DNA of 64,000 nt, taken from sequence record LR597647. One strand, 5' to 3'. Positions 30,616 to 52,862 of the stretch are shown piece by piece (positions within the stretch are counted from its first letter, which is position 1; each line of letters opens with the position of its first letter). Below the pieces are notes generated by a model, which was not told the DNA's origin, ran no database searches, and was given only the letters and a program-made list of their open reading frames with translations. Made by a program: the position numbers and the translations under genes. Origin of the DNA: Escherichia phage rV5_ev147.

Positions 30616-30736
30616 AGCACCGAGCCCACACCGGTTCCTCATGCTAAAGCATGGCCTGAAGAGGCAAACGTGTATAATTCCTGTGCATTAGAACGTATAA
30701 AACCCTGTTCACACTTTCATTCCCAGAGGAGATTTT

Positions 30737-30952
30737 ATGAAGATAGAGATATTTGGTGGAGCTGACAACACTCGTGGCCTGATTTACCTTGAATTCGATG
30801 AATCATACCTGCCAGAGGTGTTAAATATAGACTCTGTTGCTGAGGCTTTGGGAGTAAACCCTAAAGAACTCCACTCTTGTGCTGAGATCGATGGTTGGGA
30901 AGAGACCATGAACATTGATTTCAGTGAAGTAGAGGATGAACCGCTGGACTGA
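30737..30952 (+). CDS. small acidic protein (family 1-like)
   Basis: RBS agaggag; MKIEIFGG, acidic C-terminus. Confidence 0.45.
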   Translation: MKIEIFGGADNTRGLIYLEFDESYLPEVLNIDSVAEALGVNPKELHSCAEIDGWEETMNIDFSEVEDEPLD

Positions 30953-32423
30953 CACACAATTAGCTGCCCGGCTAAAGTGCTGGAAGCACCTATAACACAT
31001 CTTTCAACTAAATTTCCTACCACCACAATCACTTACCTCCCACACATGACTGTTTGCTTGTTTAGTGAGCAGTCATGCCTTGACATTCTTGCCTATCCTG
31101 ATAAAATTAAGTTCTTCTCTTTTCTTTTACCGAGTAATTCGGGTTTTCTGTTCTCTTCGGTTTGAAGGGGTATAGAGATACACCTGAGTGAACAGGGTGA
31201 ACAACCGAACCATTAGCTATGGCATTAGCATGGCGAAGCGGACGGGTGACGAAAGAGGGGCCGGAGGACACCAGTCACTGCCATATGATATATGGGTGAT
31301 AACCTGAAGAGTCTGAATAAGTGTTTAAGTACCAGTCAGAGGAAAAGGTGAATGGTAGCCGAAGGGGGGGAGGGGGGTTTCTTGTATCTTTAATTTGTAT
31401 ATTATGTATACACTTGTAAACCAATCTAATCTGAATCTGTTTACCACACAAAGCGGATAGAGACAAATATTGCCTATTAAACTTGAATTATTTATAGAAA
31501 ATACCACAACACCCCTTAAGTCTTTGATTTTACACACAAATCCTACAGATATTCAACCTCCATATTTAACATACTTGTAACATATTCCATACTCTACCTG
31601 TCTGATCAATTTCCCCAACTACATTCTCATATTTTCCCTGTCTGTACTACCCCTGCCCCGCCGGGAGTCCCGTCATATCTGGCTTTCCAGCAAATATCAC
31701 ACCCACAAATATCATTGCCTGAAGAGGGTTTCATCCCATAATACCTGCCTTACCTGAAGAGCGCTTCATACACCACGTAAATTTTTTAATTGACCTCCCC
31801 CTGCCCCGCCGGAGAGGTTGGCTTTTCCCACACAGACCTGAAGAGTCAGCCAGAAATATCTGAATAGGCCCAATTCTACCACGATTTTGACCTGACCTAC
31901 AGGGAGGCCCGAAGGGTCTAGCTTTCAGCTAGAGTCCTTGCAGGACCTACAGGAGCGCTGCCAGGCGGACGGAATGGGAATACTTCTCATTCTTATAACA
32001 ATTCTCAAATATCGAGGCAGTGAGAGAAATTAATAGGCCAGGCCGTTCACACAGTGGCACAACATTTGCAACCTATTTTGTGTGGATGAATGAGAATACC
32101 TATCATTGTGAGAACTGTTATCATTACGGGCAATTTAACATAATACCCATTATGCGCACCACTGGCGATACATACAAGGATTGATAACATGAGTTACAGT
32201 TTACGCATATAACAATCATATTTCTTACTATTTGTGTGGGATATAGTTAGCAGCCAATAGATTAGATATTGACCTGCGGACTTCCAACCGTCTAGACGTC
32301 TAAACGCCCACACAACAAGGATTATACATACATTACTGAATGTAAACAGGACCGCAAAAATGCTACCATACCAGTTTGTAAATTTTTCATGCAGCACTTG
32401 ACAAAGAGGAGGAAAACTTGTCT

Positions 32424-32475
32424 GACATAATGGTGACATAACTGACACGATTGACATAATTGACATGCCTGACTG
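32424..32475. repeat. iteron array: 5-6 direct copies of TGACA(T/C) at 9-11 bp spacing
   Basis: copies at 32424, 32435, 32444, 32452, 32461, 32470. Confidence 0.5.
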
Positions 32476-32520
32476 TTCACGCTCTCATTATTCCCGCCCT
32501 TACTATTCACGCCCTTTACT

Positions 32521-32610
32521 GCTTACATTCTTGATAGTCTACATGCTTAATGGTTTACATGACTAATAGTTTACATAGCTAACTGTTTACGCATAAACTG
32601 TTTACACAGA
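32521..32610. repeat. iteron array: about 6 copies of (G)TTTAC(A/G) at 15-16 bp spacing
   Basis: copies near 32523, 32540, 32555, 32570, 32586, 32601. Confidence 0.5.
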
Positions 32611-32618
32611 TATGATAA

Positions 32619-32910
32619 GCCATGCCATTCGTTTGCATGATAACAATAACGATCAACAACAATAAAGACTGAAATGATAACGTTGTTGATTTGACTGACT
32701 AACAATTAACAGGCTAATAATCTATGACATAATATAAAAGCAGGGCAACTATTAGCAGATCTATAGTTGCCTTGCTTGTTATGTCATGATTAACTAAATA
32801 CAAGGCAACTATGATCTGATTAATAGTTTGCAGACAAACTATCACGGGGGTGATGGTTACTGCTTTTATATTATGTCGCGACTCCGTCGCGCCATGCCAT
32901 TCGTTTGCAT
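32619..32910. repeat. 252-bp palindrome-rich segment flanked by perfect 20-bp direct repeats GCCATGCCATTCGTTTGCAT
   Basis: DR at 32619-32638 and 32891-32910; nested inverted repeats inside. Confidence 0.5.
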
Positions 32911-33571
32911 AGTTGCCTTATTGTTACAGATAAAATAATTGTATTGTTAATTATTTCTTATCTTTCTATTAGTCATCTAATGATTCCAGTTAGTATAGTA
33001 ACGTACAGTAAACATTAGACGACTAAAGATTTCTCTGATTATGATAACTTGCCGTGACAATTTCAGACTGTTTACGAAAAATGTTGACACCTGAGCTGAT
33101 TTATGTTATGCAATTTAAACGAATAATTATTTTATGCAGGTATTGACTATTCTGTTATTCTATGGTCGGAATAAATACTTAGCAGGCTATAGAATGGTGA
33201 GCGTACGTAAATTCTGAGATCTGTCGGCTATAGTTATACTCGATTTTTCACGTAGAACACGCTTTTTGGTTTGTGTAAGTGTATGACTTATAAAGATTTT
33301 TAGTTGTTGACAAGATATTGAAGATGTGCATCAGGTTAAATTTTGTGCAATAGCTGCATTACGTGCAATTTTGGAAGGAAAACGGGTAAAAATAGCACCG
33401 CTACCACACAATGAAAGGTTATGCAATAGTTATTTTACATGTATATTTGTACAGTGTGTGGGATTGATGGCTCGTCAATTATTCCACTTGCCAGGTAGGG
33501 CCGTTTATGGTAGGGAGGAAGAGCAGACAAAAAGAAAGGGACCTAAGCCCCTTGATAATTCAGTTAAAAAA

Positions 33572-33991
33572 TTATAATGATTCGTATATTTCAAAAATCC
33601 GATTTGCCAGGTCGTTACGGTACCGGAATTTTTCATCACGTTTGATCATAAGATCTTTATAGCCGTACTCTTTAAGCACTTCATTAACTTTATGGCGGCA
33701 CACCTTCATATTATCCTGAGCGTCACCAATAAACCTGTTGCTATGGTGCATGGCTTTAATTTCTTCTTCCAGGACCAGGGCAACTATGCGGACCGGATCA
33801 AGCTGATAGGCGGTAACATCCATGCGGCATTGTAAACGGCTTTTTACGTCTGCCACCGGATATACTGCAACCTCTTCCCCGTCAACATTGACAATAATTA
33901 GTTTACCATCGATTTCGAATCCTTTCGCCGCCGGACCGTGACAAAAAGCGTTATCAAAGCTATATGCCGGATTATTAGATTTAATGTTCAT
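33572..33991 (-). CDS. hypothetical protein
   Basis: first gene of minus-strand arm. Confidence 0.45.
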   Translation of the reverse strand: MNIKSNNPAYSFDNAFCHGPAAKGFEIDGKLIIVNVDGEEVAVYPVADVKSRLQCRMDVTAYQLDPVRIVALVLEEEIKAMHHSNRFIGDAQDNMKVCRHKVNEVLKEYGYKDLMIKRDEKFRYRNDLANRIFEIYESL

Positions 33992-52458: not shown

Positions 52459-52862
52459 TGATCGGTCTCCTTCTTGTTAAGTCTGAATACTGCAATAATA
52501 GCATTCCCAAGGTGCAGTGTCAAATCATTTCCAAGATACCACAGCATCCCACGGTCATCTTTAATGAAAGGGTAGCAATTTGGTGCCTTCTCTTTAATGA
52601 AAGGGTGACAATCTGGTGCCTTCCAGACATTGTACACTTTCCCAACCTGAAAGAAATCAGGCCCTGTCGGGATTTTGGTGCCTGGCCACACTTGAGATAC
52701 CTGAACACACTCCACCTGCATAATAACAGGGATAGTCATGGATGTAAATGTTTTTGTTGGCTCTACTACCATAAAAGTCTCCTCTTTGCTCAACAACACT
52801 TCCATGTGTTGATAGTTTACATTAGTGACAATCACCCCAATTACGACCACACAAGTATTCAC
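52455..52862 (-). CDS. small protein, paralog family 4 (with internal 11-aa duplication)
   Basis: IKDDRGMLWYLGNDL; KAPDCHPFIKE/KAPNCYPFIKD tandem. Confidence 0.45.
   Translation of the reverse strand: MNTCVVVIGVIVTNVNYQHMEVLLSKEETFMVVEPTKTFTSMTIPVIMQVECVQVSQVWPGTKIPTGPDFFQVGKVYNVWKAPDCHPFIKEKAPNCYPFIKDDRGMLWYLGNDLTLHLGNAIIAVFRLNKKETDQ

Follow-up and report, generated by a model that had tools for sequence, protein, structure and literature searches.

The DNA analysed here, a 64,000-nucleotide stretch of Escherichia phage rV5_ev147 (sequence record LR597647) that we refer to as the window, contains a non-coding block of 2,619 bp (30953-33571), flanked by ORF163 (plus strand, stop at 30952) and a homolog of ORF164 (minus strand, stop at 33572). 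We argue below that the centre of this block is a 459-bp direct terminal repeat (DTR) and that the block is likely to be where the two ends of the phage genome meet. In the type phage rV5 the counterpart of the block sits, unannotated, between ORF163 (plus) and ORF164 (minus), and is drawn in the 2013 rV5 genome paper as a grey box "labeled non-coding", with no function offered. Beyond this label and the length of the repeat, we found no function, origin or transcriptome data for the block in the literature, and the rV5 virion proteome prompted no annotation within it. The block is 100% identical to that of Escherichia phage rV5_ev156, and 120 further records, nearly all from the genus Vequintavirus, match it at 86-97% identity; 121 phage records keep it.

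Our alignment comprises the window and 14 other vequintaviruses (15 genomes in all). The longest open reading frames (ORFs) in the block encode 90, 83, 70, 63 and 62 amino acids, and none of the 27 that reach at least 30 amino acids is both intact across the 14 relatives and enriched for third-position changes. In the flanking genes, substitutions are distributed across the three codon positions as 16/12/70 and 13/19/125, and a single codon phase accounts for 61-88% of variable sites, compared to a largest share of 33-56% across 30953-33571. With no conserved ORF and no codon periodicity at variable sites, the block is indeed ORF-free, as a first-pass annotation made from the sequence had claimed. 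ARAGORN found no tRNA or tmRNA, and the proteins encoded on either side of the block have no Pfam domain. Might the block be coding sequence that has decayed or escaped annotation, or what is left of a mobile element? Several depositors have annotated small ORFs in it, GC skew between 31470 and 31960 (-0.31) is like that of a minus-strand gene, an HNH endonuclease gene has inserted into the block in a metagenome-only sister clade (L009, L025, L027 and others; clade B hereafter), and indels flanked by direct repeats are found at 31894-31953 and 32619-32910. However, the annotated ORFs differ from record to record, codon periodicity and intact frames with third-position bias are lacking throughout, as described above, and two islands within the block are more conserved than the flanking genes. 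We consider a coding or mobile-element ancestry very improbable.

What, then, occupies the centre of the block? The first base of the phage HdK5 record (Germany) corresponds to window position 31964 and the last to 32422, its first and last 459 bp being identical to one another, and the record of ECP2309 (China) carries exact 459-bp copies at both ends, again mapping to 31964-32422. These terminal copies are 95% identical to the window across the interval. In addition, the record of bov11CS3 starts at 31964 and three other records end at 32422. Published work points the same way: Korf 2019 (PMC6563267) describes HdK5 and EdH4 as having "short terminal redundancies of 458 bp", fixed terminal repeats of 458/459 bp are given for the genus (PMC6563267, PMC7471380), and direct terminal repeats have been reported for the genome ends of Stephanstirmvirinae as well. 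The same sequence is thus present at both ends of the virion DNA in relatives and, judged by homology, in the present phage, the DTR of which is 31964-32422: the left genome end begins GGCGGACGGAATGGG and the right genome end stops ...AAAACTTGTC. Patterns of variation set the same interval apart. There are zero indels in the DTR among the 15 genomes, whereas both outer flanks are indel-rich; to the right, identity falls to 50-80%, with many indels, within ~10 bp of the boundary.

Note that the window holds the DTR only once, as would a replicative concatemer or a circularised assembly. Because the DTR lies inside the block, the two transcription arms that the first-pass annotation saw converging here are the two ends of the linear chromosome, joined as in a concatemer, with the genes to the left of the DTR making up the right chromosome end and those to its right the left end. 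Convergence is therefore a property of the circularised or concatemeric representation, but not of virion DNA, where the arms lie at opposite ends.

Both outer flanks of the DTR contain short repeated motifs. To the right, iteron array 1 (32423-32475, plus strand) begins at the first base after the DTR and consists of six TGAC-type units (TGACATAA consensus) placed 8-11 bp apart, while in iteron array 2 (32468-32610, plus strand) eight TTCACGC / GTTTAC(A/G) units recur every 15-16 bp. Tandem-repeat analysis, which by period delimits arrays at 32423-32466 (9), 32468-32516 (15) and 32523-32590 (16), confirms that two iteron arrays are present. Number and sequence of the units differ in both arrays among phages sharing more than 90% identity elsewhere, array 1 being hypervariable and array 2 marked by large indels between relatives, and clade B has a different iteron, AGGCATAC, at the position of array 1. 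Short repeated motifs that adjoin the cleavage position and are conserved in place, as one would expect of a recognition site, are present in the sequence, and the clade-specific iterons that begin exactly at the cut would be the best candidates for recognition by the terminase. An array that starts one base past the right boundary of a centrally placed DTR also speaks for the packaging site that had been listed, alongside a replication origin and a structured non-coding RNA, among the functions the block might serve.

Further to the right lies an AT-rich stretch (32899-33048) whose GC content of 26.7% is the second-lowest 150-bp value in the window. It is followed by a promoter-like site on the plus strand (33084-33112; TTGACA-17-TATGCA, with TG before the -10), the hexamers of which are invariant and the spacer variable in the 15 genomes. 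This is one of two sites (33084 and 33307) previously described as consensus promoters. Both do have a perfect TTGACA, but their -10 hexamers are poor and neither is listed by a promoter scan. Four copies of (A/G)TGCAAT are present as described, at 33108, 33345, 33363 and 33421, and an intrinsic terminator of the minus-strand arm (33536-33553, minus strand), annotated as such in Murica and HdK5, directly follows the ORF164 homolog.

To the left of the DTR, CCTGAAGAG occurs four times in the block (31303-31845, plus strand), at 31303, 31718, 31753 and 31837, always in the same orientation and precisely where the first-pass annotation had placed it; a fifth intergenic copy is located at 30655. 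The window as a whole has 9 copies against 0.57 expected, the other four being situated inside genes as Pro-Glu-Glu codons. Every rV5-clade genome checked has 4-6 copies, and clade B has 4-5 perfect ones even though their flanks are only ~76% identical. Two C-rich boxes, CT(A/C)CCCCTGCCCCGCCGG, lie within 31647-31812 on the plus strand (31647-31664 and 31795-31812), with a CCTGAAGAG copy after each, and L009 has similar units of C-rich box plus motif; the two copies of CCCTGCCCCGCCGG noted earlier are found at 31651 and 31799. Just outside the left DTR boundary there is an optional 50-bp insert (31894-31953), missing from 8 of the 14 relatives and bounded by 10-bp direct repeats, GACCTACAGG. 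These are the two GACCTACAGG copies of the first-pass annotation, which had the second correctly at 31944 but the first at 31904 rather than 31894.

We also considered and rejected two other identities for CCTGAAGAG. As a hammerhead core (CUGANGA) it has no GAAA/stem arrangement that is kept in clade B, and Rfam hammerhead models did not match; as a class of promoter it has no consistent -10 downstream, and copies elsewhere in the window are Pro-Glu-Glu codons. In clade B, a 24-27-nt segment of island 1 (a conserved region described below) that contains CCTGAAGAG is present in L009, L025 and L041 and cleanly absent from L027, L031, L032, L042, L047 and L050, so that the motif evidently travels on a small indel.

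On the other side of the DTR, beyond the arrays, we find a unit bounded by 20-bp direct repeats, GCCATGCCATTCGTTTGCAT (32619-32910), whose copies at 32619 and 32891 enclose nested inverted repeats, in agreement with the palindrome-rich segment proposed earlier. Inside this unit is a compound hairpin or palindrome of 152 nt (32726-32877, plus strand), in which a perfect outer stem of 18 bp surrounds two inner structures, a long hairpin and a 9-bp stem capped by a GGGG loop. Its folding z-score is -9.0 as RNA and -10.1 as DNA, and its identity among relatives 97.5-99.8%. The same architecture is built from different sequence in L009 (z -10.6), phAPEC8 (-11.1) and the unclassified phage A5-4 (-5.5), that is, it has been kept in four lineages whose sequences no longer align. 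In clade B the arms of the hairpin have co-varied, as have the flanking direct repeats (GCCATGTTATCGTTGCAT). The strand in window orientation (plus) folds better than its complement in all four lineages, a weak hint that the hairpin may function in single-stranded form. Both copies of the 20-bp repeat are present in 16 of 17 genomes. Repeats that persist while sequence drifts, the pattern by which the first-pass annotation proposed to judge its reading against relatives, are therefore evident in the hairpin and, as far as their presence goes, in the arrays beside the DTR.

A number of observations weigh against the view that the block represents the fixed ends of this phage genome. The ends themselves are taken from relatives whose repeat matches the window at 95% identity, and two PhageTerm-based reports (PMC8407724, PMC13211470) call vequintaviruses circularly permuted/headful. 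Around 1.6 kb of the block is superfluous for a minimal T7-type junction, and in Phapecoctavirus the left side measures only ~285 bp. The CCTGAAGAG copies do not keep a constant distance from the left boundary (-77, -127, -133 and -188), and any terminase role of the flank motifs is putative. Finally, FV3 (L022, NC_019517) does not have the hairpin unit: a precise deletion between the 20-bp repeats (window 32639-32910, locus position ~2191) has left a single copy, so that either the unit is dispensable and the deletion a viable natural one, or the palindrome was lost in assembly. Regarding the conflict over packaging type, the three reports of fixed repeats outweigh the two of permuted or headful DNA. 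Overall, we think it likely that the block is the genome-end (concatemer-junction) region and that the phage packages DNA of unit length whose ends are short, exact direct repeats of one another.

A second focus of conservation lies near the left edge of the block and begins with a promoter that the first-pass annotation had missed. This sigma-70 promoter (31080-31107, plus strand; TTGACA-16-TAAAAT with an extended -10 TG) is the best in the block, with 11 of 12 matches, and its hexamers are kept in IMG2 and clade B while the spacer differs (TTGCAA-17-TGnTATAAT in clade B). It opens onto a near-invariant element of ~270 nt (31107-31383, plus strand) within what we term island 1 (31040-31384), a candidate non-coding RNA or primer/R-loop transcript. 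From 5' to 3' the element is made up of a pyrimidine tract, a small hairpin plus U-run (31130-31142), a purine-rich body (GC skew of +0.38 and 64% purine on the non-template strand over 31150-31380) and a G-run, G7AG6 followed by TTTCTT (31364-31377, plus strand); here the purine-rich stretch ending in a G-run had been correctly recognised from the outset. The run reads G4-7 A G5-6 in relatives and G5-6 TA G5 in clade B. Relatives are 98-99.9% identical to the window across island 1, and 31217-31336 contains only 2 variable sites among the 15 genomes, compared to 18-28 per 120 bp in flanking genes. Conservation stops just past the G-run, where an AT-rich stretch begins (31385-31534, 28% GC).

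Searched for in 5,426 E. coli genomes as a possible host-derived sequence, island 1 had no match. Rfam 15 gave no gathering-score hits in the 64 kb and, at a permissive threshold, only a chance plant-miRNA match in the block (E=4.7). A homolog of island 1 does exist in clade B. We rejected a minus-strand ORF over island 1 in L009 because indels between the clades are not multiples of 3.

Judging from these features, island 1 is probably either an RNA or a transcription-primed origin. In the first case, 31107-31383 would encode a structured small RNA of ~270 nt with host or phage targets, acting independently of the DNA ends. Conserved promoter hexamers around a variable spacer are consistent with this, as is constraint at every position that exceeds that of neighbouring genes. 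The first hairpin co-varies between clades (CCGA/UCGG versus CCAGAA/UUCUGG), and within-clade variation is located in a predicted hairpin loop. More generally, RNAalifold predicts 47 pairs, of which 10 have changed on both sides between clades, with 98.8% of cells paired, compared to 1-4 such pairs and 53-61% in slid controls. However, two clades amount to effectively one evolutionary contrast, and the structure was predicted from the same alignment used to test it. Folding z-scores of -0.9, -1.9 and -0.4 are not significant, Rfam offers no hit even at E<5, pairing between the terminal pyrimidine tract and the G-run is expected without selection, and clade B has no U-tract after the G-run. We regard a small RNA as a serious possibility, albeit one that falls somewhat short of an even chance. 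In terms of the three functions put forward by the first-pass annotation, a non-coding RNA is plausible for 31107-31383 only.

The same promoter and G-run feature in the second case, a replication origin, which would be compatible with DTR function. Imagine that iterons and AT-rich DNA bind an initiator or, alternatively, that the G-rich transcript from the promoter at 31080 persists at the G-run as an RNA-DNA hybrid, from which synthesis into the AT-rich stretch is primed. The block has two tandem arrays and holds 3 of the 12 most AT-rich 150-bp stretches of the 64 kb, two of which come directly after the G-run and after the hairpin. Strong promoter and G-run are conserved in two clades, the non-template strand over 31150-31380 is purine-rich with a positive GC skew, clade B has 2-3 tandem perfect DnaA boxes inside its DTR-equivalent, and according to the rV5 paper rV5 encodes a T7 gp4-like primase-helicase. 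On the other hand, neither GATC nor DnaA boxes are enriched or clustered in the window (DnaA-like boxes at 4.6 per kb against 2.8 per kb), and no initiator gene adjoins the iterons: the block has no conserved ORF, the flanking proteins are devoid of Pfam domains and four relatives lack the ORF164 homolog. Iterons that vary in number and sequence among phages more than 90% identical would be unusual for an origin, and Phapecoctavirus does not have island 1. Nor does GC skew, suggested earlier as a check on the origin option, help its case, since the switch follows gene orientation; the rV5 authors agree, having noted that both GC and AT skew change at 104425-105475, where transcription changes direction too. 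We consider an origin doubtful, and of the functions initially envisaged it is the packaging site, in the form of the DTR, that is supported.

Comparison with more distant relatives is instructive regarding which parts of the genome-end region persist. Alignment of clade B with the window is patchy, with 72-87% identity where it succeeds. It retains island 1 (promoter hexamers, the first hairpin with compensatory changes and the G5-6 TA G5 run) as well as the sequence at both DTR boundaries. In Phapecoctavirus, an ORF164 homolog with 90% protein identity lies beside a 1.5-kb non-coding gap and, in Mt1B1_P17, a 328-bp terminal repeat adjoins it; in BLAST comparisons between the genera the ORF164 homolog alone aligns. 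Scanning metagenomes with a 19-base conserved pattern recovered only the two known clades plus ~10 chance hits.

Several side observations concern these relatives and the window at large. The ORF164 homolog (33572-33991, 139 amino acids, no Pfam domain) always borders the terminal non-coding block; it is absent from HdK5, HMD-6, pangalan and FV3. In clade B, tandem perfect DnaA boxes (TTATCCACA) are found in the DTR-equivalent of L009 (7845-7884), L025, L027, L041 and L047 (3 each) and of L032 and L050 (2 each), while the rV5 clade has no perfect DnaA boxes within the DTR. This suggests that host DnaA may be recruited at the genome end in clade B. The HNH insertion mentioned above is a gene for a 256-amino-acid HNH_3 endonuclease (Pfam E = 1.6e-18) located at 8716-9486 of L009, between island 1 and the C-rich/CCTGAAGAG repeats, and the block therefore tolerates insertion of mobile genes. 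The DTRs of three lineages that otherwise do not align share AATGAGAATAnnTATCATT (window 32085-32125; L009 ~8000-7975; L014 (phAPEC8) ~6680-6650 and 6500-6475), a motif similar to the Fur box of E. coli (GATAATGATAATCATTATC). For CCACACA the window has 28 copies where 8.9 would be expected, 8 of them in the 2.6-kb block (31040, 31444, 31828, 32079, 32233, 32308, 33404 and 33455), approximately ten times the density elsewhere; the copies have no extended consensus and no promoter context. The top TRF score of the window (111) belongs to a 33-bp tandem repeat at 52558-52623 (2.0 copies, 90% match). Lastly, among records MG065646-MG065690, 19 are named 'Campylobacter phage' and are 92-96% identical to E. 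coli vequintaviruses across the block. The one we inspected is flagged UNVERIFIED and, by their sequence, these are probably mislabelled or contaminant genomes.

Taking as given the location and size of the DTR, the non-coding status of the block and its conservation pattern, how might the ends be processed? By analogy with T7 and T3, replication would yield head-to-tail concatemers in which one repeat is shared per junction. Short motifs in the outer flanks, namely the left-hand CCTGAAGAG copies and, to the right, the arrays of TGACATAA and GTTTACR units, could position the terminase, with cuts made at 31963/31964 and 32422/32423, and strand-displacement synthesis would copy the repeat so that both daughter ends keep a DTR. 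The compound hairpin, ~300 bp inside the left end, would probably serve as a single-strand or cruciform signal for end processing or priming. The promoter at 31080, in turn, may drive a purine-rich transcript of ~270 nt that halts at the G-run beside AT-rich DNA and acts as a small RNA or a replication-priming transcript. One can go further and postulate a new end-replication/packaging module in rV5-like and phAPEC8-like myoviruses, where a transcript made by host RNA polymerase ends at the CSBII-like G-run and, as an R-loop or primer, starts replication near the right end and the hairpin at 32726-32877 provides the single-strand signal for hairpin-primed copying of the DTR. We deem this elaboration unlikely.

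Locating the genome ends has practical consequences. Most of the 121 deposited vequintavirus genomes have been opened at an arbitrary point and display the block as an unexplained gap between "converging" arms. Placing the DTR at 31964-32422 provides correct genome ends and orientation for a group in which some reports call packaging headful. Fixed ends would entail little generalised transduction, which is relevant to phages used against E. coli O157. At the same time, the block supplies defined candidates for the sites that terminase recognises, which could also serve engineering, packaging vectors and studies of how a short DTR is duplicated in a large myovirus, while the near-invariant promoter element and the cross-lineage hairpin offer cheap and specific experimental targets.

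How does this region compare to known systems? The closest parallel is the concatemer junction of T7 and T3, reportedly described by Dunn & Studier in 1983, by Chung, Nardone & Hinkle in 1990 and by Fujisawa & Morita in 1997. Here as there, a short exact terminal repeat occurs once per junction and short direct repeats are arrayed right beside it (SRL/SRR in T7); near the junction lies a hairpin or inverted repeat that is implicated in duplicating the terminal repeat, transcription signals at the junction matter for processing, and a gp4-type primase-helicase is present. However, the present phage is a ~137-kb myovirus without a phage RNA polymerase, its repeat measures 459 bp (compared to 160 bp in T7 and 230 bp in T3), its non-coding flanks are much longer at ~1 kb per side, and its hairpin is on the left-end side of the repeat, with no sequence similarity found. 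The Phapecoctavirus/Stephanstirmvirinae phages phAPEC8 and Mt1B1_P17 are similar in that the ORF164 homolog again neighbours the terminal repeat, and the DNA separating them contains short repeated motifs together with a compound hairpin built on the same plan; motifs inside the repeat are also shared in patches. They differ in the length of the repeat (328 bp), in non-coding DNA that BLAST cannot align, in the absence of island 1 and the CCTGAAGAG family, and in a left flank of only ~285 bp beyond which the genes run in the same direction.

Other systems resemble parts of the region. P1 pac and lambda cosB, like the candidate motifs here, have short repeated elements recognised by the small terminase subunit beside a fixed cleavage point, but P1 packages by headful from pac and lambda has cohesive ends, neither of which gives exact direct terminal repeats, and we found no similarity between motifs. 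Iteron origins (lambda ori, P1 oriR, pSC101) likewise place tandem direct repeats beside AT-rich DNA, accompanied in clade B by DnaA boxes; here, however, no initiator gene is adjacent, the hypervariable arrays have units of 9 and 15-16 bp where those origins have ~19-22 bp, and DnaA boxes are not enriched in the window. Transcription-primed origins (ColE1 RNA II, the T7 primary origin, mitochondrial LSP-CSBII) share with island 1 the succession of strong promoter, G-rich transcript, G-run and AT-rich DNA, although the spacer of the G-run differs in clade B, and the likeness of the CSBII run, ~G6AG8TTTG, to G7AG6TTT is one of resemblance only. In the literature we did not find descriptions of the iteron array abutting the DTR, the hairpin conserved across genera or the near-invariant element from promoter to G-run. 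The explicit link between the DTR and the "non-coding" box may also be new, though it is implicit in GenBank records. Array, hairpin and promoter-to-G-run element nonetheless are known kinds of element rather than a new kind of system, and the core of the region belongs to the known class of short-DTR genome ends, with a repeat length already published for the genus.

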